A stretch of DNA of 63,799 nt, counting the filler, from Folioceros fuciformis (taxonomy: Eukaryota): assembly GCA_049999805.1 (NCBI GenBank). It is 6 parts of 6 records of this genome, joined end to end, with 100 filler letters (N's around TTAATTAATTAA, not from the genome) between each part and the next. Parts side by side here need not be neighbours in the genome. Positions count along the whole stretch, not along the records: positions 9,026 to 25,391 come from JBNGIO010004571.1; 5 more parts are not named here. One strand, given 5' to 3'. The notes under the pieces were generated by a model. The model did no database searches and was not told where the DNA came from. It worked only from the letters and a program-made list of their open reading frames with translations. Positions 3,792 through 61,800 of the stretch are shown piece after piece. The translations under genes and the position numbers were made by a program. Within the stretch, counting starts at the first letter, position 1, and every line of letters starts with the position of its first letter.

Positions 3792-6700
3792 TCACATCAG
3801 ATGAATTTCAAGTGAGCGCCTTCTCTTCCGGTGAAGGTGCTCCGAAGGTTCTACGTCCTGCGGTGGTGATTCCTTGCCATCTTCTTTGTCCTTCGAGTTA
3901 GCTTCTCCAAGATCGAGAACATCGCTTAGTTCTTTCCGCAGTGTATTTGTGACTACAGCTTTGGAGCCAATACCTTTTCTTCTGATGCCGGAACTGTTAT
4001 CTTCTAGGGCTTGACGGCCTACAGTGTCTGACGAAAGTATTGAAAGTTTCTGTTCATCAGGGTCCTCCGGGCTGAGGGTCTTCTGCTTGCCCTTCTGTGA
4101 TGATTTGGCAATGTTTGTGACTTCGCACGTTGAGGTGCCTGTCCTGTCGGATGTAGGACAATTTGGTCCAGTGGTCCTCATGACGAGAGTTTCGGTGGGG
4201 AACTCTGTGTCCCTGCAGCCTAGACTGCTGTCTCCAAGGCCGCGCTGGTCTTCAAACGTGCAGGCATTTTCATCCTGTGCACATCGATTATCATCCTCGT
4301 CTCTCTTCTCATCAATAGCTGGTTCCATCTGCCTTCTCAGTTTCTCTGTCACTGAAGTCACGACTCCCGCGTCATTACCCAACTTTTGTTTCTGTTTCAG
4401 GAGTTCCAGTCTCTCCTTGTCCAGAGCTTTCCTTTCGAGCTTGATTTCCCTCATTGCTTGCATGACGGTCACCCTAGATGCACGAATCTGCTCCTTCTCT
4501 TCTTGTACTTCCCTCAGTAGCTTTGTTTCCATCTCTAAATAGTACGTTCTAATGCCCTCTCTTTCTTTCTCTAGTCTCCATTCGAGCTCCTGTTCTCTGG
4601 ATTGTGGGCTGGTTTGAAGGTCCTGCCTGTCGTGTTGTTGCTCGCAGAGTAGTTGGGAGCGTTTGCGTGCAATGTCTAGGTCATACTGGTCCTTTTCATG
4701 CTTGAGAGTATCTATGTCTATTTGAAACTTGGCAAGAGCTTGTTGTTTTTCTCTCTTCAATCTCTCCCCTTCATTCTGCAACCAGATTGCCATTGATTTC
4801 CTCTCTTCCTGATGTACCTCCAGCTCCAATTTCATTTTGTTTGTTTTGGCCTCAAGTGCATCCCTCTCTTTGGCATTCTTTGCTCGCTCTGCACGGAGTT
4901 CTTGAATATTGGCTACAGTTGTCTGTCTTTGTGCTCTGAGTGCTTCAATCTCATCTTGTAGCTGCTGGTGTATGTTGCTTGCTCTCTGCAACTTTTGCCG
5001 CTGCCTGACAATCTTCAGCTTCCCGTGCTCTATTGCGTCCACCATCTTCTGAAGGTCCTCCCTTGCTGATCTCACCCTGTCATCCACGTGCCTACTCTCT
5101 GTGGCTAGCTGCTTCTGTTTTGTTATCATTTCAGTCTTCTTCTCATGCTCTTTCATGGCCTCTCTCTTGGCTGCTTCTTGTTCTCTCTTGGATATTGTTT
5201 GTGAGCGATGTTCCAGTGCATCAACGGTGGCCTGGATTTTTCCTCGTTCCTCTGTGCAAGCTTCTCTCTCAGTTTCAAGGTAGCAGTGAAGTTCTTGTAG
5301 CTCGGCAGCAGTGTCTTCATATCGTTTTCTCTTCTCCTCCAATTTGCTCTGTTCCCCCTCGAGCTTTTTGCTAAGCAGATTCTGATATTGAAATTTCTCA
5401 ACTTCATTAACGTGTTCTATGTCTACCCGTTTGAACTCAAGTGGTAGACTTGGCCGATATCGCTAAGAGAAAGCAGTTAGTTGGGCAACATACCAGATCC
5501 TTTCTCTGTTTGGTGATATCTTCTTGCTTGATGTTCATTGTCATCTGCAGGGCTTGTAGTTGTTTATTCGTATCCGTCAAGTCTCTGTCTCGCCTTTCAA
5601 ACTCCTTTCAAATGTCACCAACATGCTTGAGGCGGTTTAATCAGTAAGCTCATTGGCATAAGTCTTTGAGCTGCTTAAAAGGTGAGGCAAATTACTTTCT
5701 CTTTGCTGGCCAGTTGCTCCTGACGCACCAATCCCTCTTGTTCCTTCTGGATCACTTTGACCTCCCGTTCCACCAAAGCCTGTCGCCCAAGCAAAACCCG
5801 CGGATCCCATCGGAAGACGCGGAGGAAAGTTGGACAGCGTCAACTCTTCAAGCATTGTTTTTTACCACAGCTTTTTGTAGGGGATTCTACAACTAGTACC
5901 TGTTCTCTTGACCTTTCAGAGGTCACCTTTGCTTTCAGTTCCTCTTCCTCCCGGTGCAAGGACCCTTGCTGCTCTTCTAGAAGCTTTCTTCGATCTGACA
6001 AATCTATCTCCGCGTCTCTTAATGAGTCATCTCTGTCACTCAAGCAGCATTCACGAGAGTTTAAGAGTCTCTCCCCCTGCAGCAACCGTTCTTGGCCTTC
6101 CTGTAGTCCCTTTTGCCATTTATGCAGACTCTGCTCTTGGCGAACTACCTCAGCCGTTCGTGCCTCCAGTCTGAAACATGACCAGCAAATCAGGGGATAT
6201 CGATCTACAGACGGTAAATGTTCTGTACACGAGGTTTGTCACGGAATGATCTAAATGGCAGCTTACTGAAGATCAAGAGTTTGCCGATCCCTTCTCAGAG
6301 CCCCTTCACGAGCTTCAATGTCGTGCAGCCTTGTTTCCAGCTGCGCGTTTTTGCGATTGGCTTCAGCACAAAAGGCTTCAGCAGAATGCAGCTTGGATTT
6401 TGCCAAAAGTTCTTTCTGTTCGGCTTGGAATATGGCCTCATCCACTTGCGCAAGTTTCCTATCGGCAGATGCTTGATCTTCACCCGCCTTCTCTATTGCC
6501 GCTCGCAAAGCTCTCTCCAGCTGTGGGCAAACAACCACCGAACCGCCGTAAGCAAACCGAAGCCTCTACAACCTTCAGGAAGACTGAAATCTCCTGAATC
6601 CCTACATCTGCTGAGCATTGTCTCTCCACATCCAACGCTTTCTTCAGCAGGCTCTCCCGATTTCTAGCATCGGACAACTCGCGGGCATGCACTTCATCTT

Positions 6701-7252
6701 CTCTGCTCAATTTCTCTTCGGCCTCTGCGACTGCGATTCTCAAATTCGCGCATTCGGTAGTCAAAGACTTCCGTTCCAATAGGAGGAGCCCCATGTTGTA
6801 CTGGTAGTCGTGCAGCTGAAACAAAACAACAAAGCCAAAGCCAAAGGCAAAGTTGAAGAAAATATCCATCCAGACCTGACACGCCTGCAATTTCACGGAG
6901 GCGAACGCGCCATTGAAGTTGTGACTGCCTGCAGAACAGAGCCTACCTCAGCCTCTAAGGCGGCCAAGCCAGCGACCAGTACAGCACGATCCTTCTCTCT
7001 CAGCGAACACTCACTCAGGGCACCGGCATTTGCAAACCGGGTCCAAATCCTTGCCTCATCAGCGTCCGGCTGCTTCTGATCTGGGAGCCCCAGCATGCAA
7101 TCGGTCGGCGGAGGCACGACGCTGAGTGGACTACTGAATTGTAGACCGATGTTTCGTGAATCGGAAACATTTCTCTTGTCCGCCTGCTGGCTGGCTGAGG
7201 GCAGCGGCGACGATCTCCAGCCAACGGAGAGCGGAGCAGTACATTTCGGCAT
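3792..7252 (-). CDS. NMCP/CRWN: Nuclear matrix constituent protein (NMCP/CRWN-like coiled-coil lamina protein), 7 exons, about 940 aa
   Basis: Phase-consistent GT-AG exons 7252-6947, 6815-6606, 6520-6267, 6170-5900, 5779-5696, 5604-5494, 5381-3792. Family motifs IWTRFANAGALSECSLREKDRAVL and LEAE|LHDYQYNMGLLLLERK, a long coiled-coil rod, and a basic NLS-like RKRRR near the C-terminus. Confidence 0.88.
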
Positions 7253-8925: not shown

Positions 8926-9025
8926 NNNNNNNNNNNNNNNNNNNNNNNNNNNNNNNNNNNNNNNNNNNNTTAATTAATTAANNNNNNNNNNNNNNNNNNN
9001 NNNNNNNNNNNNNNNNNNNNNNNNN
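8926..9025. other. Artificial contig-joining spacer N44-TTAATTAATTAA-N44 (also at 25392-25491, 37869-37968, 48417-48516, 61701-61800)
   Basis: The same 12-mer, a stop in all six frames, is centred in 100-bp N blocks five times. Confidence 0.97.
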
Positions 9026-11980: not shown

Positions 11981-13599
11981 ATGAAGGGCAAAGGAGGGAG
12001 ATCCAAATTCTGGGCAAGAGTGTTGCCGTCCCCGCTTATCGTTCTGCTGTGCACGGGCTTCTTTTTTCTGGGATGCTTTGCCTTCTTCTTCACATCTGGT
12101 GAAAAGGTTGGTGCCCATCAGCTCGGTCCTGTTGGGATGTCAGAACCAGGATGATGCCTTCTTGCTTCATGCTGATCGAGAAGCGGGACAATCAGGGGCA
12201 TCCTCAAGGCTTGCAACCGGCCAAAAGCCTTCTTCAGCTCGATCAGGAGGGTGGTGTTGGTGTTGGGGAGCATGGAAGTACGGGTGACGACGTTGTCACC
12301 ACAATTCCGTTTCAGGTACGTGTTGAACTGATCCTGCGTGTGTCTCAGAGTGTGGGTGGAGATCTGCGATTCCGGTGCGCTTCCACTCATGTCTTTGTCC
12401 TCCTATGTCCGGTGACAAGGTTTTGAGCTGGAAACCCAGGGCATTGCTGTTCCCGAAGTTTGCTAGTCCAGAGCAGTGTGAGCATATCGTCTCCCTGGCA
12501 AGAAGTAGGTTGTCACCGTCTGGGTTGGCGTTACGGAAAGGGGAGTCAGCGTCTGGTACTAAGGACGTGAGAACGAGGTAGGCAGGGCACGGTGATCCCA
12601 TCGTTGTGCCCGTGACCTTCTTCAGGTGTGTTGCATGTATTCTTGACTCACCTGTCTCCTCCATCTTGCATGCTTTTCAGTTCGGGCACATTCCTGAGCG
12701 CAAAGCAAGATAAGTCTGGGGTACTGGCTTGGGTGGAAGCGAAAATGGCCAGAGCCACCATGATCCCGAGGCATCACGGGGAGGTGTGATCCAGTGCTTG
12801 AGATTCCCCCCCCCCCCTTTTTTGTTTCTCCTTCTATCGGATCGATTGCCAGAGTAACTTAGGCACGGTATTATCTCGTCAACAACTTGTGACGCCCCTC
12901 TCACCATGTCTGCAACTCACAGCCCTTCAATGTTTTGAGATACGAGCTAGGACAGAAGTATAATAGTCACTACGACGTCTTCAATCCGGCTGAGTATGGG
13001 CCACAGAAGACCCAAAGGGTTTGTGAATTGCATGTTTGTATTCCTATTGCTTCCTCTTACATGGAAGCTTGACTATTGACCTCGCAGCTCTTTTCTACTT
13101 GTCCTCCTAGATGGCATCATTTCTTCTGTACCTCTCTGACGTGGAAGAAGGTGGAGAGACCATGTTTCCATTCGAGGTAACAGGAGAACAGAGGGTTTGT
13201 TCATTTCTGAAAGGAGTAGTGGCTGTTGTTCATCTCTTGGAAGGTAGCGAACAGTAGAAGCCTGTCATTTCAGCTTGTAAGAGTGTTCTTCTGTGTGGTT
13301 TGCAGAACGGACAGAACATGAACATCAACTACGACTACAAGCAATGCATTGGCTTGAAAGTGAAGCCAAGACGGGGTGATGCTCTCTTATTTTACTCCCA
13401 GCACCCTAACGGCACCATTGACAAGGTATATTGCGAGACATCAATCGGCATTCTCTTCTGGTGAAGACCCGTGACTAACGTTCTCATCCTGTATCGCTGT
13501 CAGACTGCCTTGCATGGGAGTTGCCCGGTGATCAGAGGGGAGAAGTGGGTAGCAACTAAGTGGATCAGGGATAGCCCAGAGGAGCGGCCAAGGCGCTAG
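11981..13599 (+). CDS. P4H: Prolyl 4-hydroxylase (type II membrane-anchored, P4H9/P4H13-like)
   Basis: N-terminal anchor MKGKGGRSKFWARVLPSPLIVLLCTGFFFLGCFAFFF. Spliced motifs IPFQ|VLSWKPRA, VRTSSGTF, FNVLRYELGQKYNSHYDVF, LYLSDVEEGGETMFP, ALHGSCPVIRGEKWVATKW. Fe ligands (H, D, H) and the 2-oxoglutarate Lys are intact. Stop at 13597-13599. Confidence 0.96.
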
Positions 13600-13654
13600 A
13601 TGGGGTTATAACACGAGTACTTACCTCTTGTAACCGCCATGGATGATTGCAATC

Positions 13655-16600
13655 TCATTTGGCTACCAACCTCCTGACGATACGAGTCTTTACCGTCCAC
13701 TTTCCAGGTGATCCTCTAATAGCAACTGCCCTTCTAGGTTTGAAGCCTGGGGCGGGCTGCAGCAATGCTGAGGAGTTGGGCCGGTAATCTGGCCCGGCTC
13801 TCACCATATTTGCAGGTTGGACGGACTTGGCGGGCAAACTTGGTTCTGTGTTCCTGGGTATTTCCACAGGACAAATCTGCCTTCTTTTACTGCCACCACT
13901 GGCAGAGGGTGAGTCAAATATATCTCGTATCTTCTCTGGACTCCACAGGGAGAAGTCAATAGAGCCAGTCAGGAGGGACTCGCCTCCGTCTAGTAGGTCC
14001 AGAGACGACAGGGAAGCCACAACTGCTGTACAAACGGCCGCTGGAAGCTTTGCCGTCCTTCGCCTGGGCCTTGTGGGCAGAAAAACCACTGTTGATGCCA
14101 TGTCGGAATCCTCTGCAGATGTAGCGTTGTTGGGAGGAAGCTGGCTAGCCCCTTCCCGCGATTTTGTGAACGTGGTATGTTGAATCGCTTGAGCAGCCTC
14201 CTGGGAGCTTTGCAATCTGGCATCATCCCTGCGTCGCTGATGTAGGTCCTGCAGGGTTTCGAAGCAGAGGCCGATTGGGGAGACGGGGCTGCCCGTCTCG
14301 CTGCTCATGTTCCCGGACTTCTGCGTGCCCTCCACCATGTACGCCGTTGCTCGCCTTACTTGCACCCTGGGCATCATTGTGCTGCTTTCTTCCAACATCG
14401 ATGGCAATGATTCGTCCTGTTGGGATGTTTCTTCTCGCTTCCCGAGAGCGTTTCCCTCAAGTTGGGTGCTCACGACGTCCTCTCTTGACATGGTGAACCT
14501 TGATCGACGTGAACTTTCGCTCAGTGCCCAAGACGATGCTGCTGCTGAAGAAGTAGCTGTTAACAATCTTTCGTCCAGCTCTTTCACCTGCTCAGACAGA
14601 TAGCCAAGAATGGAGTCCATGGAAGGCGCATCTGTTTCATAAGGAGACGGGTTTGCTCTTCTTCCACTTTGGCTCCTCGAAGGGGAATAGGAATGCCTGC
14701 CTTCCTCAACCATGTCACTGCATGTCAGTTTCGGTTTGGGAAAATTCACCGCCTGCTCCCGAAGCTGCTTCAGGAGTCTGACTGACGACATTCCGGATGA
14801 GCTTTGCACTTCCTCCAGTGCCTTTAACGAGTCTGCTCCAGCTAAACGCTCCAGCTCATCGTCTATACTCTCGCAAACCTCCTCCCAGATTCTTTCCCAA
14901 CTCGAGCCAGATCTCCTGGGGAACTGTGGAGCCGTGAGGGGTAATGGTAGTACGGCTGCAGTGTTCCTGCATGTGTCAGCTTGGCTGCTCCTGGATCCCG
15001 CTCCTCGTTCCCTGCTCTTGGCACTTTCCCAGTCCAGATCTGGGCTCTCGACCTGAACTGCAATGGAGAGGAAATGTTTCTCCCCCTCAACTCCGGACCC
15101 TTCCTCATGCTGCCTGTCACTGCTACTTGGCCAGTCCAGATCTGGACCATCTACCTGAATTGCAACGGATTGTTTCCCTCTCGCCTCGTCGCAACCTTCC
15201 CTACCCTTCACTTCCTGGCTAGAATGCACGAACTGATCCAAGGGCACTGCGGCACGTACTGGCTGAAGGTGAAGTGCCCTTCTCAATGCCAAATCGATAT
15301 CATTCATTTCGTTGGAAGAGCTCGTGTGCTGCATCATGTTGAGAGAATCATGTTCAAATTCTGCAGATGCGGATTTGGCCTCAGTTGGGACAGGTCTAGG
15401 TCTTCCTACGCCCAGCTGCTCGGGCCAAGACAGCCCCTCCTCGCTGAAGATGTCTGAACTCACACTTTCTATCCTTCGACATGTTCCTTCAAGATTACGG
15501 GTGCGTCGCCGGCCGTTGCGTATATGCCTCCCAAGATTCCCACTTAACTTGCCTTGCCTGCCCTGGTTACTCCACATTTTTCTACCTGTCTGGGGGTTTC
15601 TGGTACCTGTTGTAGGTTGCGGACGGCTCTCTACATGCACGACGGCGTGTCTGCTCTTTGCTTTCTGAGAAGCCTCGATCGTCAGCGGATCCTTCTCATT
15701 ATTCCAAGGACCAAGATCGGTAACAGAGGTTCGATTATTTCTCGTGTCAGGGAACACCACACCTTCTCCCAATTCACTCGTTTGAGAGAGCCAGGGACTG
15801 ATCCGGCATCTCCTTTCACTTGCGGCGGCTTTTCTTCTTGCTCTCTGACTAGCAGCACTTCCCTTCCGTGCAACTTTATCCCCTTTCATCAGGACTTCAT
15901 AGTTCCTGGAGACCTTGTCCATAAATGCATGGTCGCCTTCGTGTCTTTTGGTAGGTTCCTTCAGCTTCTGCAAAGAGGCTTGCAGCTGTTTAAGGAAATG
16001 AATATCTTCAATTTGCTCAGAGAAGAGGGACTTTCCCTTCGGTGCTCGTGTGGTTGGCCAGTCACTTTCGTCCCGCTCGATTCCCACTTTCGTTCTCTCC
16101 TCTCCTTTTGAGCTTCGTCTAGCAGTTTTCATAGTTTTCTGCTGGGAAGCAGATTTTACTGTACCGACTTCAGAGTCGGCACAATGCTCACCCCTTCCTA
16201 GTACATTCCACAAGTTCTGACCAACCTGGTCCATCTTGTTTCTCTTGTCCATCCGCCTCTTGTGCATCTCTAGCTCCTTCTTTCTCCTTTCTTCGATGAG
16301 CCTGCAGTCCATCGGAATGCCAAGCGGAAGTTTGGTTTCTTTGTGGTCCAATAGGGTTCTTTGCCTGTGGCTTTCCCTCGCACCTTCTTCCCTCCTCTGC
16401 CCTTGCCTGCCTTTCTGCCCTCCGTACAGCTCAGCTTCGAGGGCTTCTAACTGCTTCTGAGCTCTGACTTTCAAGGAAGAAGGCAACTTCTCTAGCTTAC
16501 TGCTCTTTATTTTCGCTTCCCTAAGTCTGTCTAGAAATTCAGCAGTACCCCAGATTTCACCCAATAGGGACACAGCCGAGCCCAGCGTTCCGTCTGATTC

Positions 16601-19600
16601 AGGACCTGCAGATCTGCTCAAGCGCAATCCATATCTCTTCTTCTGGACGGCAAAGCTGTTTTTCCCTTTGCTGTCATTGGCTTGTACAGCGTCTTCAATG
16701 GGTTGTGCACATCCAGCGCATTTTCTGCACTTTGTCTTCTTTGACTCTTTATTCCTGGAAGCCAAGTCATACGCACGCGTCTGCTTTTCATCTTTCGTTG
16801 CCCTCCTCTGCTTATCTGTCACCCTTCTAGTGGCCAACTCGTCTGCTTCCCTCTCATGACCTCTTGCGTGAACTGATCTTGCCACCACTGACTTCGTGTG
16901 GTCAGTACGAACCTTTGAACTGAGTCTGCATCTTGGTGAAACTTTGGTTCCAAAGGCAACGACTCTTGCAGTCTTAAGTGGCTCCGTACGTAAACTCCTC
17001 TGTACTACAGACCTTTTGGCCTTGTTGCAGACTACAGGTTCACAATTCCCTGTCTGATCGCCTGAGAACGACCCCGAACCAGCCAAGACTTCCCCACGTG
17101 TTGAATCTCTTTTCGAGTCTGCATGGCTCTGATGAAGAACATCGCCACCCTTCACATCCACTGTTAAAGTGATGGTCGAAGAATGTGGACCTGACTTGAC
17201 AAGTATCTTGATGGGAGAAACCACTTTTGTTTGTTGTGCCTCCACGATGGCACCAGAGTTATTCCTGCCATCCACCAAGGATTGATCTACGCATGGAGGA
17301 GACTCAACCGCAGCTCCATTGGAAGGGGTGCCGTGTATGTTCACAGCACCACCTTTGTCATCTGTTAAGGGAGCAACTGTCTATCAGACCAAACAGGCAA
17401 CGAATAGCATTGCAGCAGCATTCTAGACTCTACGCAATATGACCTCAATATGGTGACGCAGTCAAGAGGACCCAGTCAAGAGCATAGATGGTGCAGAAGG
17501 GTCAAAAAGTTACCAGGCATGAATTGTGGATCTCTCCCCTTCTCTATCAAGACAAGACCTTTACCTACCACGTCAGAGCACACAAGACTGCGTAAGGTAG
17601 ACAGGGTTTAGGGCATTTACATTTTGCTGTATTCTCACAGTTTCATTCTTTGACGATGCTCAAACCAGGCACTAATGTAAACGGCCAGCCCAACCAGACA
17701 AAGCAGGATCTCTCTTCCTTAGTCCTTTGTTCTTAGAGCTCTTTCTCTTTGCAACAAACTGATCTTCTAAATAACAGCATATGGCACCTGCAGAAATCCT
17801 CCCAAAAAGAGTTGTCGAGAAGAGAGACCTTCCTTCAACCCGGACTATGTGTACATGGGTCACATCGCTGACTCAAGAGACAATTATCTTTAGATGGGGG
17901 CGGGCCAAAGGGAGTTCATCCACCATATTGGTCTCAGTTGTGATGCTGGCAAGGTTCCCGTTTCTGGGCTCTGTACCACAGACATATTGGAGACTTGTTT
18001 GACAAGAGTACAAAAGAGTTAGCTGGAATACCATTTGGAAGACCTTGATCGCCAGAAAACATAGCTGCCACCTTTCGTTCCCTCTCTTCCTTCTCAGCTT
18101 TCTTCAGCTGGCCCTCCAAACGTCGTACTTCCTTAAAGGACAACGTGTCAGAATGGATAGCTCCTCTACAGAGCGGGACCAAAACCAGCATGCTCGGGAA
18201 GAAGGGCACCTTCTCTTTGGCGAGTTGAGCCTCGGCTGCGTGTCCTCTTTGAGAGATACGCTTCTTCGCAACGTTGATTATCTGCGCATGTCTTATCCTT
18301 ACATGCTCGTGATGGGACCTGTGTTTGTCAGCAGCTTCCCAAGCATTCATATCTGGCTCCTTGGCATTTGTTCTATCCGTCAATGCAGCCCAGTGGGTAT
18401 GCATGAATGTGTACTTATAGTCCCCTAGCTTGGAGACTTCACAATCGGGCTTGCATTCTGCGCATACAGGCAACGCGTGTACCAGATGGTTACATCTCAG
18501 TGAACGAGGTTGATGAGCTTGATTAAGATTGTCCTTTATCCAGTGAAGCCTACGCTGCATGTACCAGGTTGGAAAACTTCCTTGATTTGTTTCAGTTTGG
18601 ATTTGATCTTCACACCGTAAGCTGATACCCTTGCCAGATTTCTGTCCATTTCGGCAGCGTTCTCTATTTGCTTCCTTCGTTCTGTCGCCAATCTCATCTT
18701 ACTTTGCATTTCCTCTCGTTTTGCGATTTCCTTTACAGACGTGCATGGTGATGGTTGTGGGCTACGGACTCTACTTGGCAGCTAGTGCGGCGAGACAGGA
18801 AAGCAAGGGACGGGACTGCCTGGGTTACGCATACCTTCTGAAGGGCGTCCGCATACCTCAGCGCCGCACAGCATCGCCTCTCCTCATTCTGCAACGCTCC
18901 AGTCGCCTCTTTCATCTCCTGTCAATGAAAACGAGCAAACCAAGACACCCACGCATGTAACGCAATACCTTCCCAAACTGGCACCCACCACCAGATTCTG
19001 AAGCTTAAACCATTGTGGGTGACCTTGAAACGCTCCACTTGTGCCGCAGCCTTGTGCGCATGCCCGATGCTTTGCAGCGCAGTGGCACATTCAAGCTCAA
19101 GATCTTCCAGCCTCCGCCTCCGATCAGCCCGCCATTCCGCCTGCCCAAGGACACCAGTTCAGCATCTTCCAACAGCCGAAACAAAGAGTGTCTAGAGCCG
19201 CATGCCTCAAGCTGCCGCAGCAATTGCTGTTTGGCAGCACGTCGGTGATCTCGAAAGCGTTGAACCCGCTGCGCTGCCAACAGCATCTCCTGAGCCCTGA
19301 CCTGCCGCAGATGAGACACCCCGTCAGCTCTGTGGTAGCGCATTCATGAAGTCATAGGGCAAACGCTTAATTGCGAGCAAGACCTGAACCAATCTTGCCC
19401 TGCGCATCTTCTCTCGGGCCTGCTTCATCATGGCTTCCTGCTGGGTCGCCGTGAGAACGTAGGTTCCATGCACGCTGTCCTGCATGATCCCGAAACCACG
19501 TCGGCCGGCGGATCCAAAGCCTGAAAGTCTGGTGTGCGGCTGAAGGTACCTCAGGACAAGCTTGGGGGAAAGAAGGAGGAGTTTCGGCCAGCGTGTCGGC

Positions 19601-19648
19601 CACCCTCTGCTCCAGGATGCGGTGGCGAAGCATCCGCGGATCCGCCAT
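13655..19648 (-). CDS. Large multi-exon protein with a CEP295/KIAA1731/Ana1-like N-terminal coiled-coil domain and a terminal exon of about 3.7 kb encoding a disordered region
   Basis: Exons 19648-19550, 19479-19384, 19301-19206, 19140-19024, 18918-18835, 18730-18629 splice in phase 0 to ...VLTATQQEAMMKQAREKMRRARLVQVRAQEMLLAAQRVQRFRDHRRAAKQQLLRQLEAEWRADRRRRLEDLELECATALQSIGHAHKAA.... The 1229-aa ORF 13655-17344 has an acceptor at 17361. The middle exons (about 18550-17510) are only partly resolved, so the link to the long ORF is inferred. Confidence 0.72.
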
Positions 19649-19956
19649 GGCCAGAGTCGTGCCTTCCCGGTCGGGAGGCATCAAGCCCACATTTTGAATT
19701 TCACATGCTGCCGAGCCATCCTCTCGGCTTCCACAGGATCGCGCCCAGCCCTGGAGCCGTAACTCGGGAGCTAACCTCTTCTTCCCTGGTTTGAACCCAC
19801 GAAGCCCGGCAAACCATGTCCGTCTCAGTCTCGTCATTCGCCGGCATTGATGCGAACGAGGTGGGCAGGCCGTGTGTCTGCTGGATACAAAAAAAGGAAC
19901 CCGTGACCTCTGTACATGCAATTCCCTGCTACCCGGCTCTCCACATCTCAGAAGTA

Positions 19957-22687
19957 ATGAAGCCCAGTAAATTGCTTCACGGCCTGGTTCTGTACCAAGG
20001 TAGACAGCAGTTGGTGCTTCGAAACGTGTGAACCATAGGAACTTGTCTCAGACTCTCGCAACCTGAATGCAGATCCTGGAGGTGCAAGTGAGGTACAGGT
20101 TTTGGATCTGAACGATCTTGAGCCGCCGCCTGTGGCAGTGAAGTATTCGCAGCTTCTCATAGATGGAAAATTCGTGAATGCGGTTTCAGGTAGACTGTAG
20201 AACACGAAATGAGCATCACGTGGTTTCTTGTGGCGAATTCCATATTTTGAAGCCGCAGCTTGAGTCGTGACGGTGATGAATCTTCTTTGGATGCTGTCTG
20301 GTGCAGGAAGGCAATTTTCTTCCATTGATCCCCGGTCGGGAGACGTAATCGCCCGTGTTGCAGAGGCGAATAAAGCAGATGTCGATCTGGCAGTGAAAGC
20401 CGCTCGCAGGGCTTTTGATAGCGGCCCGTGGCCACGAATGAGCGGGGCGGTAAGGGCATGGAATTGGGACTGTCTTGAACTTTGCCGGCGTGCTCAGCGT
20501 CCGACTGCATCCAGGTTGTGATAACTCCTAGGCCTTTATCTGGATGGCGCTTCTTGGCAGGATAGAGCGCGGACTTTGCATAAATTCGCTGATCTCCTTG
20601 AAAAGCACTCAGGCGAACTGGCGATTCTGGAAGCTCTTGATGCGGGGAAGCCTATCGACAACACAATGTTCCTCGAAATGCCGACGGTGATAAAGTTTGT
20701 CCGCTACTATGCAGGTACTAGCAAGAACAGGCACATCCCTGAGGCTCTCACAATTTGCAAACTCAGTCTGCTCATCTTTGACTACATAGACACTTGGGAG
20801 TCTCAGGCTGGGCTGACAAACTGGATGGGAAGACGTTGAACGTGGACGGGCCGTATTTCGCATACACTCATCACGAGCCTATTGGCGTGGTGGGTCAGAT
20901 ACTGTCATGGAACTTCCCTTTGACCATTTTTGTCACCAAGGTGTGCCCTGCCTTGATCTGCGGGTGCACGATAGTTTTGAAACCGGCTGAACAAACACCC
21001 TTGACAGCACTTTTTGCTGCTAAGCTTGCACTGGATGTAAGTATGTCTGTTGCCTGCCTTCGCCGCCGTGAGAGTGCAGCGACATTTCAAGTATGAGCTC
21101 AAGTACTATAGGCTGCTTGTCAGACTAATAGAAACAGTGCAGGCATCCAAGCTTCTGAAAAATTAATATTCATGACTTTGTTGGTTGTTCGGCTCCTCAC
21201 TTGATCTGTTCTTACATAAATCCTCAGGCGGGTCTACCACCTGGTGTGCTGAACGTGGTTCCTGGGTATGGGACCATTGCGGGCGCTGCTGTGGCAAGTC
21301 ATATGGGTATTGACAAGGTAGTGCACTGACTGACTGTCTGACTATCCCGTCACCACGGCTGTCGCTGCCATGCAGTGCAAGCGGGGCTATAACACGTCTC
21401 TAATGTCCTCCAGTGGGCATCATATCAGGTGTCGTTCACAGGTTCGACAGAGGTAGGACGAGCTGTTCTGCGAGCTGCTGCCGACAGTAATCTCAAGCCC
21501 GTCACGTTGGAGCTGGGTGGGAAGTCTCCCTTAATCATTTGCAACGATGCGGACTTGGATATGGCTGTAGAGCTTGCCCACTTTGCTCTCTTTTTCAATC
21601 AGGTACGTAGTGTCCTGAGTTTCCCCATTGCTCGCAACTATGCCTTAGTCATCATGTCGGGGCTTGTGTAGTGATGGCAGACTCTCAAAGTGGCAGCCCG
21701 TAGGATCAGGGGTAGCCAATGTCACTGTCTGCTTCCCTTAGATAATCCATTTCCAACTCACTCTCTTCAATCTTGATCTGGGTACTCACAACTCAACGCT
21801 GGCCACAGGGGCAAGTTTACTTTGCAGGTTCTCGCACATTTGTGCAGGAGGGTGTGTACGATGAATTCCTCAGACGGTCAAAAAAGCGAGCGTTGCAACG
21901 TGTTGTGGGCGATCCTTTGAAGTCAGGAGTGGAGCAAGGCCCGCAGGTAGATGACCGCAGCGAGGTCATTTGAAGGTTCCCGTACCAAAATCGTCACTGA
22001 AGTCGTTTACAGCGTGGATCAACTTCATATTTGGCTACCTGGCTTAGGTCGATGAAGCGCATTTCGATACAGTGATGAGCTACATCTATCAAGGAAAGCG
22101 GGATGGAGCAAAGCTGCTAACAGGAGGAAGCCAATTCGGGAGTAAAGGGTACTTCATAGAGCCAACCATATTTGCAGACGTTGAGGTACCGGCAACAGAG
22201 ACAGCTTGTTTTTGCAAAACAGGTGCCTGCACGAACACTCCTTTGTGGTAACGCACCCTGTCTGCAGGATTGGATGAGCATAGCGAAAGAGGAAATCTTT
22301 GGTCCTGTCATGTCGGTTTTAAAGTTCCGGTGAGTTGCTGTACCCTACTACTGTAGATTCCTATGATGTTGACGCGACAAGGGGTTCATGGTGTGGTTGG
22401 TTTCGCTGGACAGCACGATTGACGAGGTGATTCGTCGAGCCAACAACACAAGATACGGGCTGGCTGCGGGGATCTTTACCAAGGACCTGGAGACCGCGAT
22501 GACGCTCTCCCGAGCTATCAAGGCGGGCATAATCTGGGTGAATTGCTACGACATTGTGGACTGTAATGTCCCTTTCGGAGGTTACAAACAAAGTGGCTTA
22601 GGAAGAGAGCATGGCTTGTATGGCATCCAACAGTACCTGCAAGTAAAAGCCGTGGTGGTGCCTCTGGAGAAACCGACATGGCTTTGA
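19957..22687 (+). CDS. ALDH2: Aldehyde dehydrogenase family 2 (ALDH2B/2C-like) with the catalytic Cys replaced by Tyr
   Basis: Spliced motifs [105 protein letters not shown]. The reading frame is intact to TGA at 22687. The first exon (19957-19999) is less certain. Confidence 0.95.
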
Positions 22688-23043
22688 AAGCTGGCAGGCA
22701 GCCTTGCCAGATGTTGCACTCCTCGTTTCACTCTTGGTTCTCTACACCGGGCTCCAAGCCTCCAGATGCTTCGGCATGGGTCACGTCCGCTTAGTCTCCT
22801 CCGCGGACACTTGTCTTCATTGCTCCGGCATTTCCTGTAGCTGCAGGTACAAAGCCGTCCCGACGGCCTTCTTCCTCCAGTCAGCCTTCTGACATGAGCC
22901 GCAGCGAACTAACGGAAAAGCGCACTTTTGAAAACATCCTCGCAACCATCGAAGGACAGACAGCTGTCAATCACGACCGATCTCGTCATTCCCGATGAAT
23001 GGAGTCAGGGCCGATGCTGCGCTTTCACATCTCTTTCGCTGTA

Positions 23044-25391
23044 CAGTCCACCCTCCCTAAATGTTACCTGTTGGGAGTAGGGCATTGGGTAACATTTAAG
23101 GAGGTGTAACATATAGAGAATTTAAATATTTATCAAAAATAAAATTATTAAATATATTGAAAATATTTTAAATATAAAATACAATATATTATTATATATT
23201 ATTATATATAATAATATATAATAATATATAATATGTTTAATAATACTATAAATTTATAGTAAATAAAATAAAAAATGAACTCCTAAATGGCTTAAAAAAA
23301 CGGGTTATTTCCTAACTTGCTTTAAAACTTCTTNNNNNNNNNNNNNNNNNNNNNNNNNNNNNNNNNNNNNNNNNNNNNNNNNNNNNNNNNNNNNNNNNNN
23401 NNNNNNNNNNNNNNNNNNNNNNNNNNNNNNNNNCCCATATATCATCTCTATCCGGAGTAGAAAAGATAGCACATGCATTTGTCACCTCATAATCAACAAA
23501 TTCTTGTGCAGACATAGTAGGGGTCAATCCTGTTGTGCCAAGTCCTAAATCCCTTAGCTGACAAAGAAGCATTTCTATTTCTACGTAATCTCTATTGAAC
23601 AAATCTTCACGTGTTGCTTGGTTGTCTTGTTATTGCTCATCATCACTGTTAGCATTCCATTTCTCAAAACTAAGTTGATTCAAGTCTATATCCGACACGC
23701 TAGCACTTGCTCTCTCCTGCCATAACCCAGAGTGTTTCCAACAATTTCTAATGATTTTCCCTTTAACATCGATACGCCAAGCTTTTTCCAACATAGTCAC
23801 AGCATGGTATACATCAATAAGAGGAGAATTACCAACCATTTTGAATCTCTTGGATTTGATGCTAGTACGGCCCCTAACTCGGCCTTTTCCTGTAATTGGC
23901 CTTAAAAGACTGTATAATGCCAACCATAGGTTGGTAACCCATAGGTTGGTAACGAGTCGTAATATTAGGAGGAAAAAATTCAACCCTTGTAATTTGAAGC
24001 TTACTTTGTGTCTTAGCTTATAGTTTATGAACAGGAGCATTATCCAAAAGAAGCAAGACATTAGTACGGCCCCTAACTCTCATACTCGCATCAAAAAAGA
24101 GAATAAATTGCTCAAATAAAGCCACCGACATACAAGCATTTGAGTTTGCTGACCAATGAATACCCAAATTCTCCACTTGTCCAATGTTGCGACTGGTAAA
24201 AGCTCTGGGCCTCAGGAATTTGTTGATCACAAAGGGTGGTAATTTATAACTACCATCCATACTGGTTGTCAAAGCAATAGTTATCCTTTCCTTTGGAGTT
24301 TTCTTCTCGCTCAACCTCTTCCTTGCCAATGTTTTGTTCGGTTCCAATCTGTAGAACAACCATGTTTCATCCATGTTAAAAATATCCTGAGGCTCGTATT
24401 CTCGCATGATACTTTTAATGTCTTCCATTCTATCTTGGACCATCTGCGATGTATCAGCACTTGCAGCTTCTCTATGCTTCACAAAACCTTTGATGCCATG
24501 TTAATGTTTAAACTTTGCTACCCAACCATGAGAAAATGTTAGTGGTTTTTCCAACCTTTCTGCTTATGGTAACCTATCAAAGAACTGTTTTTCCATTTCA
24601 CACAACATATCGTCAGAGATAGTGACATTTCCTTCCATCGTCACAAACCATGAAAACAAAGCCTCCTCAACCTTGGGATGAAATGTATCCTTACTTCGTT
24701 TAGAGCTAGCTTCATGATCCTTTACGTTTCGAAACTCATCTCCCTTCTTGAAAATTCGACTTATGGTCATAGCAGAAACTGGCATGCTGAATTGATGAGA
24801 AGCCCAAGCACTAACCTCTCGATTAGTAGCTCCACTATAAGCATCTTTGTATAATATTATTTCTTTCTTTTGCCTCATCGTCAAAGATAATTTCTTCTTA
24901 CTACTTGGTTCTCGCGGCATATTGAATTCACCTTAAGAAAAGCAAAAGTTACAAACATACAATTTAATAATTGAGTACTCAAAATAATGAAATACAAAGT
25001 ATCCCAAATCTAATATAGAAACATACCTCCAAATATGTGATTTTAGAAGCTTTTTTGTGTAAGGCTATCCTAGCGCATTTCACCTTAACAAGCAGAACGT
25101 ACGTGGATGGAGAATAGATGTTAGATCAAAAGCCTTCAACAATAAATACAAGAGTTACTAAAACCTATTACAATTTGAATGTGCTAACATGCTCCTTCCC
25201 AAGCTACATGAAAGCGTTAAACTGCCAAGATAGATAGTTATAGGATTTCGGGGCTTAAAACCATCGTGAAATAAGAAAAAATAATGAAAAATAATGCATG
25301 AAATAATAAATATTAAATCAAGTTAAAAAGAAAATATAATAATTAATTTTTACTTCATACACTCCTATATACATAAATACTTACTTACTTC
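23044..25391 (-). mobile_element. Decayed pogo/Tigger-type (Tc1/mariner superfamily) DNA transposon
   Basis: TA followed by CAGT at 23042-23047, with a subterminal inverted repeat (cctccctaaatgttacc/ggtaacatttaaggagg) and AT-rich subterminal DNA. The other end is lost at the contig boundary. Confidence 0.8.
23434..24920 (-). pseudogene. CENP-B/Tigger-like DDE_1 transposase pseudogene
   Basis: HTH region (LSLTMRQKKEII...VEEALFSWF, FSHGWVAKFK), IFNMDET, KERITIAL, LLLLDNAPVH, FFPPNITT, IRNCWKHSGL. Several in-frame stops, and a short duplication at about 23923-23953 (YQPMGYQPMVGII) replaces the third-Asp QPxDxG motif. Confidence 0.92.
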
Positions 25392-25818
25392 NNNNNNNNN
25401 NNNNNNNNNNNNNNNNNNNNNNNNNNNNNNNNNNNTTAATTAATTAANNNNNNNNNNNNNNNNNNNNNNNNNNNNNNNNNNNNNNNNNNNNACTGTATAT
25501 AGTTTATATATTAATAATCAATTTATTATTAAAAATAACCAACTTTGGACCCGGCCCTTTTCATGCGCCGACCCGGCCCGTCCTACCCGCTGACACGGAA
25601 CTGCGTCGGACCGCGCCGTGAGCCACAGTTTTCAGCAGGTTTCCTTTAGGACTCGGGAAAGTCCAAAACGAAATGCGAAGTCCCGTCCTCGGTGTCGTTT
25701 GCATTGTGCAAGGCCCTTCAGTCACATCCGTGCCGTGTCATAGAACAGAATTGATGTACCGGCAATGCGTAGGTTATACGAGTGCGATTAGAATCAGGGT
25801 TATAATCGTTGTTTTCGA

Positions 25819-28800
25819 CTATGCGAGATCCAAGTGCGGTAGCAGAGTATCCAGGAAAGAGTACAGAAATCTCTCCTGCTGGGGCTTGGCGCCGTCTCCC
25901 GCCGAGAAAGTACGCCTCTCTAGTCCATGGTCGACCCAGCTCAGGCCGGGCTGTATCCATGCTCCTGAAGCATCCCTCATCTTCTGGATCTCCTTGGCAC
26001 AGTCAAACATGCCAGCGTGAGCGTAAACGTTCGACATCAGCAAATAAGCTGCCCCATGCTTAGGCTCTAAGCCGACTACAATATCGAAGGTCTTCCTTCC
26101 CAGATCTACTTTCCCATGCTTTCGGCAGGACCCGAGCAGTGACAACCACATGTTCAGATTAGGCTCCATTGGCATTGTCAACAGCAGCTCTTCCGTCTGT
26201 CTGAACAGTCCAGCGCGACCACAAAGGTCAATCATGCTGCCGTAGTGCTGAATCGTTGCAGGGATGCCATGGTCTTTGACCATGGACTCAAAGTACTCCA
26301 GGCCTTCATCTACCATGCCAGCATGACTGCAAGCAGAGAGAAGAGAGCAGAACGTTACACCGTTCGGGTTTATTCCTGCTAGACGCATGTCCCTGAAGCA
26401 CTGCACGCTCATTTCATACTGTCCCTGACTAGCGTATCCCGCAATCAGTGAATTCCATGACCACAGATTGTCCTGGGGCAGAGAGTCAAACACAAACCTT
26501 GCATCCACCATACTCCCACACTTGCCGAAAGCTTGGATGAGAGCTGTTGCCACGCAAGGACGGCGCTCTAATCCTCTATCTACAACATCTCGGTAAACCT
26601 GATGGCAGATGCTTAGCGCGCCCAACTGGCAACATGATTTTAAGACGCACAAATACGTTACTTCATCTACTTCTGCACACTCCTGTTGCATTTGAGAATA
26701 CAATTTCAGGCCTCTGTCCGCTTCACCAAAATGTGCGTAACCTGCCAGAAGAACATTCCAAGAAACCACGTCTTTTGTCTCCATTCCTGTGAATGAATCT
26801 TCAGCGTCCCTGACGCTGCCACACTTCACGTAAAGACTGGCAAGTACGTTGCAGTAGAAGGTGTCCCGCTTGGATAGCCTGCATACAGCTTGAGCATGAA
26901 TTGCCTTCCCAAGTTGCAACGCTTCGGCTTTGATATACTGCCCATCCACAAAGATACTCTCTTCCTGCTGGGCAAGACTGCCACATGCTTGAAACAAAGA
27001 GACAAATGTATCATAGTCAGGAGGAACAGATGCCTCCAGCATATGATGATACAAGTCCAGGGCCTTTCCCCCTTCCTTCAGCTGGACATATGCTGTTATC
27101 ATCACATTCCATAAATCAACCTTTCGTTCACACACGTTGTCAAAAACATGCCTTGCCTGTGAAATGCTGCCACATTTGACATAAGCACCAACAAGCGCTT
27201 TAGGTAGAAAGTTAGAAGACTCAAGACCATTCAAAGCAACCTCGAAATGTATCGCCTTCACACTACGTAATGCATCAACTTTCAAACATTCCATTTCGAC
27301 ACTAGTGCTTTCCTCTTGCCCTGCCAGCACTTTACATGCCTTGAGGGCGGTAACAAAGGTCTGATCATCTGGCTTGACACCTGCCTCCTGCATTCCCCAA
27401 AACAGCTCCAAAGCCTTCTCTCCTTGATTCTGTTGTACATATCCTACAATCATGGCTGTCCAGGAGACTACATCCCGCTGAGACAACCTACTGAACGCAA
27501 GATGTGCATCAACGAGGCTCCCACACGCCGCGTACAGGCTAACAAGGCTGTTGGACACAAAAACATTGGATTCGTAACCACTTTGAATGGCCTCAGAGTG
27601 CAAGACCTTGCCTTTATGCAGGGCTTCCACTGTCACACCTAGACCTGGTATGGCATTCTCTTCCTTTTCAGCAATGCTGCTGCATGCTTGAAATAAACTA
27701 GCAAACGTCCAACCATCTGGTTGGATATTTTCCCCTTTCATGTGGTCATACAACTCTAACGCTTTGTATCCTTGCCCATGCTGTGCATAGCCTGCAAGCA
27801 TTGCATTCCATGATGCCACAGACCGCTGGCACATCATGCGGAACGCAAATTCTGCATCAACTAAACTTCCGCAATTGGCATACAAATTCACAAGAGTAGT
27901 ACCCACAAAGACATCTGCGCCATGTCCACTAAAGGCAGCTGCAGCATGTAATGCTTTGATCTTTGTCAATGAGGTCACTTTCACTGCATTGCCATCCACA
28001 AGCAGACCTTCTTCATATTCTGAGAGAACACTGCATGCTTGTAGCACAGTGGCGAAGGTCCATTCATTTGGACTAGTATCTTCCTCCTGCATCTTACGAA
28101 ACATCTTGAGAACCTCCTCAACCTCCCCCTGTTGTGCAAATCCTGCCATCATTGCTGTCCACGAGACTACGTTTCGCCTGGGCAGAGTATCAAACACACG
28201 TTGGGCATCCAATGTACTCCCACATTTTACATACATGCTGACGAGACTGGTGTTGACAAATACATCAGACTCATACCCGCTCAGAACTGCTTGAGCATGT
28301 AAAGACTTGCCATGATGCAATGCTGTGACTTTCCCACACGGCGTACCAATGCCTTGAAATTCTGCAGAGTAACTACAGGTTTGGAGCAGAATGGCAAAGG
28401 TTCGCTGATTTGGTCTGAAGCCGTAATCTAACATTTGGCCATAAACTTCCCAAACTCTTTTCTTCTTATCTGGCTCCTTCTGTTGTGAGTATCCTGAGAG
28501 TAACGAATTCCAGGAAACTACATCACGTTCCGGCAATCTGTCAAACACAACTTGAGCATCCACAATGCTGCCACACTTCGCATACATTGTCATGAGCGTG
28601 TGAGCAACACAAGGGACTAAGTCACAGCTGCAGACCACAGCATCAGCATGAATTTCCTTACCCTTCCTCAGGGAGACTATTTTGACAAATTTTCCATCCA
28701 AGACAACACTCTCCTCAGTATCAGCAAGGCTACTACACGCTTGAAATGCACAAGCTGTCATCCAAACGTCTGAAGTTATGCCCTTCTCTCGTACCTGTCT

Positions 28801-30086
28801 GTAAATCTCCAACGCCTTATGTCCTTTCCCCCGCTGGACATATGCTGAGATCATTACACTCCATGACACCACATTTCGGTGCAACAAACTGTCAAACACG
28901 AATTCTGCATCCCTGATACTCCCACACTTGGCATACATTACAATGAGCGTGTTCACCACAAAAACATCAGACCCAAAACCCTCAAGAGCGGTTTCAGCAT
29001 GCAGTGCTTTCCCCTTCTGTAGTGAATCCAGCCTCAACGTCTCTCCATCAATAACCATGCCCTCTTCATTATCTGCAAGGTACCCGCAAGCTTGCAGCAC
29101 GCTCACAAAGGTTCGGTTGCTTGGCCTAACATCTTTGTTTCGCATTATGGCGAAGAACCGCAAGGCCTCCTGTGCATCATGCCGAGCGTACCCTGCAAGC
29201 ATGGCGTTCCAGGAGGCTCCGTCGCGCTGAGCCAGATAGTTAAAAACATCCCGTGCATCAGCAACGTTTCCACACTTAGCATACATATCAATCAGAGACG
29301 TTCCGACAAACACGTCAGCCTCACACCTTTGTCTCAAAATGTCACCGTGGATACGCTTCCCCTCCATCAAAATCGCTAAGCTGGCAACAGCTTTGAGTAC
29401 AGCGACAAATGTGTACTTGTTCGGCTCCACACCGTCACCTTGCATCTGCCGGTACATTTCTAGAGCCTGCCGCCACTGCCCCAACTTGCAGTGACCTGAA
29501 ATTATTGTCGTCCACATGAAAACAGATCGGTACGACAATCTTCCCATCACTTCCAGAGCACCTTCAAGGCTGTCACACTTCACCAGAGTCTCTACAACAC
29601 AATCACCCAAATACCTGTTCGACTCCAGCCCATTCTTTGCCATGAGGGCGTGTACTCGCCTCGCCTCAGGGAGAGCCTTCTTCTTGGCACACGCTTGCAA
29701 CACCATCCTGTACAACTGCGCAGAAGGCACACTCCCATGCTGCTCCACTGCGATGCAGGCCTCCACGGCCTTTTCCAGCTCTCCCTCCTCACACAAGCGT
29801 CGCAATTCAAAGATATGCGGAAAATTCGACTCCGTCCTGCAAAACCAGAACCTCATCCTCACACGGTGCCATCCCTGCAAACACCCAAACAACACTTCCT
29901 CTTCCGCATTCCCCCTTGGTGAGCTTGCAAGTCACTCAGTGCAGGAGCCCATTACCATTCACGTCCCGCGCTTCCAGTTGCCAGGGTCCGCCTCGACACA
30001 GATCCACACGTCACCATCAACCTGGCACGCCGAGAGGACAACCAAGGGGGCTTCCAAGGAAGATGCAGCAAAATTGGCCCCGCCAT
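25819..30086 (-). CDS. PLS-class PPR protein (E/E+, no DYW), organellar RNA-editing factor type, 7 long-L triplets
   Basis: 1358-aa ORF of P-L-S repeats ending in E motifs and a PG box (WIQPGLSWVDH...TFSAGD). A likely first exon 30086-29956 (MAGPILLHLPWKPPWLSSRRARLMVTCGSVSRRTLAT, targeting-peptide-like) joins in phase to 29836 via a 119-bp GT-AG intron. Confidence 0.95.
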
Positions 30087-36758: not shown

Positions 36759-38199
36759 TTTGGTGTCAAACTAGTAGCAAGTTCCGCCTTGCAAGCTCAA
36801 GACACACTCTCAGCTAGCTTCCAAAAATCTATTGCATCACTCAATACAACTCATCCTTCGTAGTTAGTTCACCTTCCTACCATTTATGGAACAAGCATGA
36901 GAAAGAAAGCTAGTAGCTAGATCTAGCTGAAGGCTGTCAAGCAAGTGCATAAGTGTCCCTTTATAACCGCCAAAAGTGGAAGCTGACCTGGACATGTGGG
37001 TTGGTTGAGCAAGTGTTGTCCATGTGTGGGTTGGTTAAGCAAGTGTTGTTCAGTAGACTTAAAATACTAAATTAATCAAGTATCTAGTAATTAACTACAA
37101 AGCCACTTCATTTTCTATGTTAAATATAGTTTCACATATCCTCATATTTGAGCACTCCTTGAACATCATGTTTTTTATTTCATTTTATTTCAATTATTTT
37201 ATAATATTATTAAAAATATTATTCATAATTTAGGTCTGTGAATTATGAAAGGTTCCTACGACATTATAGAAGCAGGAAGCATGTTTTACCATATGATATC
37301 ATTTTTCACATTCATTTCACAATTTTGAAGAAATGCTAACAAGCTAAGAAATTCTTGATAAATTCATGAATTCCTATCAAAATTAGATGCTATCACCTCC
37401 TTGGTGCTACATGTCCTTCCAAATATCTAAAAAAGTGCAACAACCATCTTCACACATACTACTTTAAAATGTAGATTTTTTTAATAAAATATTCTCAAAA
37501 TAAGATTAAAAATAACAATCAAGAATGTTTGGATTGTTAGTGAGTTTTATTTTCAATGCAGATAATACATTGCATATATCTGTTTGTTTTGTTAGATAAG
37601 TAGAAATTTTACTCCAAAACTGCATTAAAACTGGTGGGAGACAAATATTTTTATTCTGTTCTTGCACGATTAATAAAAAATGTAAATAAATATTATATAT
37701 ATACAAATATAATTACATATTTATAGTGAATTGAAGTACAGAGGTAGATACGTTGATGTCGTGGCTGGTTCTCGGAAGCCAGAAAAGAGAGTAGGTAAAG
37801 GAAAGAAGAGAGTGGAATGGGCGGTTGGTTTTTGACGGAATTAATGAGGAAGAAAAGGTGGGTAAAACNNNNNNNNNNNNNNNNNNNNNNNNNNNNNNNN
37901 NNNNNNNNNNNNTTAATTAATTAANNNNNNNNNNNNNNNNNNNNNNNNNNNNNNNNNNNNNNNNNNNNGCGCCCTCGTACCCACTATGCCTCGCTACCAA
38001 CCCCGGGGGTCTTCCAATTCTCATCTCTCTCTCATGACACCCATCCCCCTCGATGGAGTCGCCTGCTGGTACAATGCGTCCGCCGAGACGGTGAGTCGTC
38101 CAGTCGGCCTCAAGGTCCGCTCATTACTCTGGTGAAGCGGAGTCCTCGTACTCTGACTAGATTACCTCCTCGGTGCCTTGATAGATGTCAAAGGCTCCG

Positions 38200-61700: not shown

Positions 61701-61800
61701 NNNNNNNNNNNNNNNNNNNNNNNNNNNNNNNNNNNNNNNNNNNNTTAATTAATTAANNNNNNNNNNNNNNNNNNNNNNNNNNNNNNNNNNNNNNNNNNNN

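Follow-up and report, generated by a model that had tools for sequence, protein, structure and literature searches.

A transcribed nine-exon gene of Folioceros fuciformis encodes a large basic protein that may be a very divergent relative of the centriole scaffold CEP295/Ana1

The stretch of DNA analyzed here (the window, 63,799 nucleotides joined from six records of the Folioceros fuciformis assembly GCA_049999805.1) holds a spliced minus-strand gene of nine exons running from 19648 to 13655, as delimited with contigs of two public runs, X1 and X2. The spliced reading frame of this nine-exon model is open over 1,570 aa, with seven of its eight introns being GT..AG and one GC..AG. PLS-class PPR genes with E/E+ motifs also lie in the window, and an Rfam search of the window gave 0 matches. 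The exons are listed below.

19550..19648, minus strand: exon 1, 99 nt, aa 1-33, phase 0; ATG at 19648-19646; joint 19478/19549 in X1 and X2.
19384..19479, minus strand: exon 2, 96 nt, aa 34-65, phase 0; joints 19478/19549 and 19298/19381, each in both runs.
19206..19301, minus strand: exon 3, 96 nt, aa 66-97, phase 0, GC donor; joint 19298/19381 in both runs, joint 19138/19204 in X2 alone.
19024..19140, minus strand: exon 4, 117 nt, aa 98-136, phase 0; joints 19138/19204 (X2) and 18917/19023 (X1).
18835..18918, minus strand: exon 5, 84 nt, aa 137-164, phase 0; X1 joints 18917/19023 (side of 84 nt) and 18729/18834 (side of 26 nt).
18565..18730, minus strand: exon 6, 166 nt, aa 165-219 plus 1 nt, phase 1 end; X1 joints 18729/18834 and 18457/18565; GT..AG borders.
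18210..18457, minus strand: exon 7, 248 nt, aa 220-302; X1 joints 18457/18565 and 18130/18209.
18032..18131, minus strand: exon 8, 100 nt, aa 303-335 plus 1 nt; X1 joints 18130/18209 (side of 99 nt) and 17361/18032 (side of 29 nt).
13655..17361, minus strand: exon 9, 3,707 nt, aa 336-1570, stop at 13657-13655; basic and S/R/E/K-rich; a single unbroken X1 contig covers 13502-17362.

All eight introns are bridged by contigs of X1, X2 or both, at the exon borders 19550|19479, 19384|19301, 19206|19140, 19024|18918, 18835|18730, 18565|18457, 18210|18131 and 18032|17361; the border of the GC..AG intron (19206|19140) is bridged in X2 only. Nine X1 contigs align at the gene, each 99+% alike to the window, and X2, which comes from a relative, contributes two, one 95-99% and the other 90-95% alike. 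Two further runs, X3 and X4, gave no contigs aligning at the gene, and all four were classed as "RNA?", the type being a guess. Three joints have overhangs below the 31-nt rule used for bridging: 18729/18834 (26 nt), 18457/18565 (29 nt) and 17361/18032 (29 nt). Unspliced forms of introns 3, 5, 6 and 8 are also present in X1, and the 65-nt GC..AG intron is retained in an X1 contig. This is a real spliced nine-exon land-plant gene, and its land-plant origin holds up.

An initial annotation, made without database searches, had proposed six phase-0 exons of 84-117 bp at the start of this gene and had let the proposal depend on transcript support for the junctions, which the RNA-type contigs (type guessed) supply by bridging the exon borders. 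The peptides it quoted all lie on the minus strand, keep their stated order and belong to one spliced gene. Exons 1-5 (99, 96, 96, 117 and 84 nt) were exact, but the sixth, drawn as ~102 nt ending in "...AEMDR", is actually 18730..18565, 166 nt long and phase 1. The segment NAWEAA...QRGHAA was rightly placed after these exons in order, and is located within the 248-nt exon 7 (18457..18210); LEGQLKKAEKEERERK is encoded by exon 8 (18131..18032). As for the start of translation, an upstream in-frame ATG at 19681 would add a 33-nt 5′ extension, where three of four differences from X2 change a residue, as opposed to three of nine downstream. Since the extension is mostly residue-changing against X2, unlike the downstream sequence, we favour 19648 as the start.

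The N-terminal region of about 300 aa (aa 34-335) is charged and helical and is encoded by the short exons, with K+R making up 21% of it and a pI of 9.62 for the whole protein. Against the X2 relative, six of the nine coding differences listed are synonymous, including five of six in exons 2-4, a small sample given that 18 of the 32 differences of both X2 contigs are listed. Among those listed, exon 2 has three (two synonymous, one M>V), exon 3 has two, both synonymous, and exon 4 has a single synonymous one. The N-terminus (~aa 34-335) is apparently under purifying selection. For exon 7, a single-sequence AlphaFold2 model has a mean pLDDT of 73.3, with helices at residues 5-28 and 36-81 of 82. 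We considered a generic sticky coiled coil for this region and ruled it out by the missing heptad signal and low decoy scores: a crude and uncalibrated Fourier scan of aa 34-335 lacked a peak at 3.5 and gave powers of just ~0.5 at 7.2-7.7, and in blastp comparisons with P0001 (described below) and 565 decoy ORFs from the window, the neighbouring coiled-coil gene among them, the region scored at most 23.5 bits (26.2 bits when composition correction was off).

Exon 9 encodes a body of 1,235 aa that is predicted to be mostly disordered, with isolated helices only and a mean AlphaFold2 pLDDT of 37.5. Its sole detectable relative is P0001, a 1,174-aa ORF from a Logan contig. A search for homologous proteins with the 1,241-aa ORF containing exon 9 scored 7,999 candidates of 682-2,172 aa, and P0001 matched at E=5e-60, with 76% of exon 9 aligned at 29% identity (37% in the phmmer search); P0001 is an ORF-level call that spans only the large exon. 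When the last 1,002 aa (aa 569-1570) were compared by phmmer to 1.84 billion representative proteins, a library drawn from public genomes in which animal CEP295 is expected, P0001 alone appeared at E<=0.001. An S.A.QV..DLD unit occurs once in P0001 and twice in the window protein. Three blocks stand out in the comparison.

14843..14902, minus strand: conserved block SWE.IWEEVC.SID.ELE, aa 1156-1175; nearly invariant against P0001; predicted helix at model residues 588-608.
14498..14626, minus strand: conserved 43-aa block, aa 1248-1290; strong conservation in P0001; predicted helix at 682-707, pLDDT 64-73.
13913..14014, minus strand: conserved block SLSSLDLLD.GESLLT.S.DFSLWS, aa 1452-1485, near the C-terminus; 27 of 34 columns identical with P0001; without a Pfam match.

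Searches for a known family were empty. None of the seven N-terminal exon peptides matched Pfam at E<=10, and no Pfam family scored above its cut-off on the 1,241-aa ORF; the only hmmscan match of that ORF was pRN1_helical, at 16.2 bits and below its 27-bit cut-off. The ALMS motif (PF15309) was not found in an hmmscan of the same ORF, C-terminus included, at E<=1. Longer proteins were sought with exon 7 (82 aa; 7 candidates) and with exon 4 extended by a codon at either end (41 aa; 22 candidates), and neither returned any at E<=10; these searches required shared 5-residue words and were limited to proteins of <=2,000 aa, so a CEP295 of vertebrate size could not show up. A PDB sequence search with exons 7 and 4 returned chance rows only (E=1.7 and 1.4), the ESM Atlas gave no usable match to exon 7 or exon 9, and none of 594 pattern matches at metagenome loci was confirmed (alignment A1). 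The initial annotation had expected the gene to be missing from angiosperms; no angiosperm orthologue was detected in the searches, and likewise none from any named plant.

The protein had been proposed as a homologue of the centriole scaffold CEP295/Ana1, and the human CEP295 N-terminus would align to aa 42-130 without a gap, rare residues included, in agreement with the fragments quoted in the initial annotation. This agreement is not independent evidence. Like CEP295 (human KIAA1731) and Drosophila Ana1, the window protein is large, basic and helical or disordered with a conserved region near its N-terminus; its 1,570 aa and pI of 9.62 agree with this description, which is generic to many scaffolds.

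In Ana1, a conserved region, CR1, "found in all CEP295/Ana1 homologs", is described at aa 19-134 within a DDC8-like domain (PMC13422256). The candidate region in the window protein, aa 42-164, is similar in position and size to CR1 as described there. The same source, together with PMC5007451, describes the proteins as "largely helical", "less well conserved" outside CR1 and bearing basic microtubule-binding patches, and the latter places a 43-aa PICA motif near the C-terminus of CEP295/Ana1. Family members sit on the centriole wall, are needed for centriole elongation and stability, and bind CEP135/BLD10, CEP152/Asl, CEP192, Polo and microtubules. Toward the C-terminus of the window protein lie conserved blocks of 34 and 43 aa, in which a PICA motif is not identifiable. 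An ALMS motif is described for the C-terminus of human CEP295, though it is not stated to be universal, and unlike human CEP295 the window protein has none. Also unlike CEP295/Ana1, its body has no match to any animal protein in the phmmer search of 1.84 billion representatives. This lack of a match is weak evidence, because conservation in the family is described as poor beyond short motifs (PMC13422256).

The N-terminus is possibly homologous to the CR1/DDC8-like region of CEP295/Ana1, making the protein a very divergent member of that family, a tentative reading to which we give a probability of roughly 0.45. Against it, no search result ties the protein to CEP295/Ana1, and the testable evidence leans neutral to slightly negative. 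A charged, R/E/K/Q/A-rich composition also makes helical proteins look more alike by chance. The gene could instead encode a fast-evolving protein, helical and disordered, that is confined to its lineage and has no relation to CEP295, its likeness due to that composition and to an inexact version of the human sequence, which we consider plausible at somewhat below an even chance. Such a protein could have any of the scaffold, nucleic-acid-binding or microtubule-binding roles typical of basic disordered proteins. The empty searches, with P0001 as the single exception, and the basic, predicted disordered body are in keeping with an unrelated protein, and a resemblance of this kind is a lead rather than a test. 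Weighing the other way, the putative match is gap-free and takes in rare residues, the N-terminus is conserved against X2 (five of the six differences listed in exons 2-4 being silent), and it is not sticky toward the local coiled-coil decoys. From the literature, published searches did not turn up CEP295 in plants or Chlamydomonas (PMC5371999; PMC5007451), which favours an unrelated protein, while the fit to the position and size of CR1 (PMC13422256) speaks for CEP295. In more detail, a survey table of spindle factors marks Ana1/CEP295 in two columns only and gives no plant gene id (PMC5371999), and one group states that its searches of Chlamydomonas gave no CEP295 homologue (PMC5007451). We found no report of a plant CEP295 in the papers searched, where the family is described as an animal factor.

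A third reading is that the short exons and the 3.7-kb exon do not form one transcript, being two separate genes or an annotation artefact, or that the locus is a pseudogene. For it, the joint between exons 8 and 9 has an overhang of only 29 nt; the unspliced X1 contigs and the retention of the GC..AG intron in an X1 contig point the same way. We find this very improbable: joint 17361/18032 coincides to the nucleotide with a frame-preserving GT..AG pair, the long X1 contig ends 1 nt past the exon 9 acceptor, and the model of nine exons reads through 1,570 codons uninterrupted. Exon 9 is moreover conserved in P0001 (E=5e-60), and the differences from the X2 relative have a synonymous bias.

If the CEP295/Ana1 reading is correct, aa 42-164 (from ~19455 in exon 2 to the end of exon 5) would be the candidate CR1, inside a DDC8-like domain. 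A centriolar location and function are inferred by analogy with Ana1/CEP295: in cells that form sperm, the protein may act as an elongated scaffold along the wall of newly made centrioles or basal bodies, its N-terminus directed at the cartwheel/BLD10 (CEP135) side. The protein may bind microtubules through basic stretches and may promote wall stability and elongation. In flies, BLD10/CEP135 binds Ana1 (PMC13422256). Land-plant BLD10/CEP135, a different protein family and not in the window, is a precedent for a fast-evolving scaffold of the animal centriole type, having evolved fast enough for orthology pipelines to miss it (10.1101/2021.07.25.453666) and acting in spermatozoid basal-body assembly (10.1101/2021.07.25.453666; 10.1101/2020.12.21.423647). 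It is possible, at just under an even chance, that the gene is a true CEP295/Ana1 orthologue and that the CR1 module and scaffold are older than the plant-animal split. The scaffold would then have been retained for the land plant's only centrioles, built de novo in sperm-forming cells, where the protein would work alongside an equally fast-evolving BLD10/CEP135.

Even without a link to CEP295, the locus is transcribed and encodes a protein of 1,570 aa for which hardly any relatives can be detected, from a gene that would be split by ORF-based annotation. If the link is true, a plant member would date the CEP295/Ana1 family back to the ancestor that plants and animals share, and a wall and elongation factor would join the short list of studied plant basal-body proteins (SAS6, BLD10, POC1). 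It would also open the de novo assembly of bicentrioles to genetic study.

When nine minus-strand exons between 19648 and 13655 are joined, the reading frame stays open for 4,713 nt and encodes 1,570 amino acids. The GT..AG borders were first predicted by eye and then checked against contigs of two public sequencing runs, X1 and X2, the latter from a relative. X1 contains 88% of the sampled words from 13600-19700, and the nine X1 contigs used are all 99+% alike to the window; two contigs came from X2, one 95-99% and the other 90-95% alike. The introns skipped in these contigs are exactly those predicted, with overhangs of just 26-29 nt at three of the joints.

Exon borders of the gene (all minus strand) and the runs whose contigs join them
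19550 to 19479, minus strand: joined in X1 and X2
19384 to 19301, minus strand: joined in X1 and X2
19206 to 19140, minus strand: joined in X2 only; a GC..AG intron, kept in the X1 contig
19024 to 18918, minus strand: joined in X1
18835 to 18730, minus strand: joined in X1
18565 to 18457, minus strand: joined in X1
18210 to 18131, minus strand: joined in X1
18032 to 17361, minus strand: joined in X1

Unspliced forms of introns 3, 5, 6 and 8 are also present in X1. Intron 3 (19141-19205, minus strand) has a GC donor, and its retention, as in the X1 contig, would shift the frame. The spliced contigs are taken to represent processed transcripts, although X1 and X2 are classed as "RNA?" by guess only. 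The peptides quoted in the initial annotation all lie on the minus strand within 17934-19648, across three frames, and the sizes and phase it gave for exons 1-5 hold; its sixth exon, put at no more than 117 bp, is in truth 166 nt. The "NAWEAA" and "QRGHAA" blocks it had placed after these exons are present, but they belong within a 248-nt exon 7 (18210-18457).

A single unbroken X1 contig covers exon 9 from 17362 to 13502, beyond which it enters a convergent gene on the plus strand (12300-13500 and 13304-13655), whose final exons it carries in spliced form. The convergent gene is spliced at 13424-13501 (GT..AG) and has a peptide that may resemble a prolyl-4-hydroxylase. Since both genes share one 4,899-nt X1 contig, their 3′ ends abut or overlap.

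The two X2 contigs show 32 differences from the window, of which 18 were listed and used to examine the coding signal. Of these 18, nine fall within the coding model, six being silent third-position changes and the remaining three I>V, E>G and M>V; in exons 2-4, five of six are silent. Three of four differences in the 33-nt in-frame extension 5′ of the ATG at 19648 alter a residue, and on this small sample the start was therefore set at 19648.

The gene lies wholly between the first two of five identical 100-nt joins, each of the form N44-TTAATTAATTAA-N44 (a six-frame stop linker), and the window has further gaps of 100 N (three) and 10 N (six). The joins make the window a contig chain, or pseudo-scaffold, in which adjacency across joins is not guaranteed.

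Joins, neighbouring genes and transposon remains
8926-9025, 25392-25491, 37869-37968, 48417-48516 and 61701-61800: identical 100-nt linkers
25819-29931, minus strand: long, intron-less PLS-class PPR gene, 1,370 aa
30624-33029, plus strand: long, intron-less PLS-class PPR gene, 801 aa
24018-24500 within 24018-24932, minus strand: DDE_1 (pogo/Tigger-type) transposase fragment, E=5e-15
61947-62669, minus strand: retrotransposon SH3_retrovirus domain, E=2e-22

As read from ORF peptides, a multi-exon aldehyde-dehydrogenase-like gene (20040-22700, plus strand) stands head to head with the nine-exon gene, whose ATG is about 400 nt away. The two PPR genes terminate in E and E/E+ motifs, and a Pfam search reported no DYW domain in either; PPR genes of this class, ending in such motifs, are a land-plant signature. 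A multi-exon coiled-coil gene lies at about 3792-7000 (minus strand), and one of its exons carries "...YQYNMGLLLLE..", presumably typical of plant NMCP/CRWN lamin-like proteins. Two of its ORFs had no Pfam match.

The full 1,570-aa protein has a pI of 9.62. Residues 34-335 are 21% K+R and 15% D+E, with four prolines and nine glycines, and a crude Fourier scan of them found no hydrophobic periodicity of 3.5 or 7 residues. AlphaFold2 predicts two helices for exon 7 alone (mean pLDDT 73.3); for the C-terminal 1,002 aa, modelled from an alignment of two rows, mean pLDDT is 37.5 and the helices are isolated, coinciding with the blocks conserved in P0001, a 1,174-aa ORF from a Logan contig. S-[ST] pairs are unremarkable (29 observed, 22.9 ± 4.2 in shuffles). 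At aa 1066-1113 (about 14980-15130, minus strand) the unit "S.A.QV..PDLDW" is tandemly duplicated; P0001 has a single copy.

P0001 was the only match of the 1,241-aa exon 9 ORF among 7,999 scored candidates (E=5e-60, 29% identity), and again the sole match when HMMER compared the last 1,002 aa with 1.84 billion representatives. It is an ORF-level call and spans the big exon alone. No longer protein matching the exon 7 or exon 4 (19024-19140) peptides was found among candidates up to 2,000 aa. Pfam gave no family match for the exon 9 ORF or the N-terminal exon peptides, nor did PDB (exons 7 and 4) or the ESM Atlas (exons 7 and 9) give a match, and metagenome contigs yielded no confirmed relative. 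Orthologues were detected neither in angiosperms nor in any named plant, so the phylogenetic profile is uninformative.

Does the gene encode a plant CEP295/Ana1, as initially proposed? We put this at roughly 0.45. According to the available parts of PMC5007451 and PMC13422256, the family is marked by a conserved N-terminal CR1 inside a DDC8-like domain (Ana1 aa 19-134) and a 43-aa PICA motif, human CEP295 additionally having a C-terminal ALMS motif, with poor conservation elsewhere. The candidate CR1-like region of the plant protein, residues 42-164, fits in position and size. A Pfam search of the 1,241-aa ORF, which includes exon 9 and the C-terminus, found no ALMS motif. An unrelated, lineage-restricted scaffold ranks next and is nearly as likely. 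Against 565 decoy ORFs and P0001, the noise level of the N-terminus is 23.5-26.2 bits. The human CEP295 N-terminus would presumably align gap-free with that of the plant, well above this local noise; this agrees with the initial annotation but is not independent of it and does not count as evidence.

In the parts of the literature on CEP295/Ana1, bryophytes and Chlamydomonas that were available, we found no report of a plant CEP295. PMC5371999, in the portion available, marks Ana1/CEP295 in just two columns, without a plant gene id; in that of PMC5007451, a Chlamydomonas homologue of CEP295 was sought and none found; and the accessible text of 10.1101/2020.12.21.423647 mentions neither Ana1 nor CEP295. 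Fast evolution concealed BLD10/CEP135 in land plants, according to the available part of 10.1101/2021.07.25.453666. The gene is real and unusual, with nearly no detectable relatives, large, and apparently transcribed.
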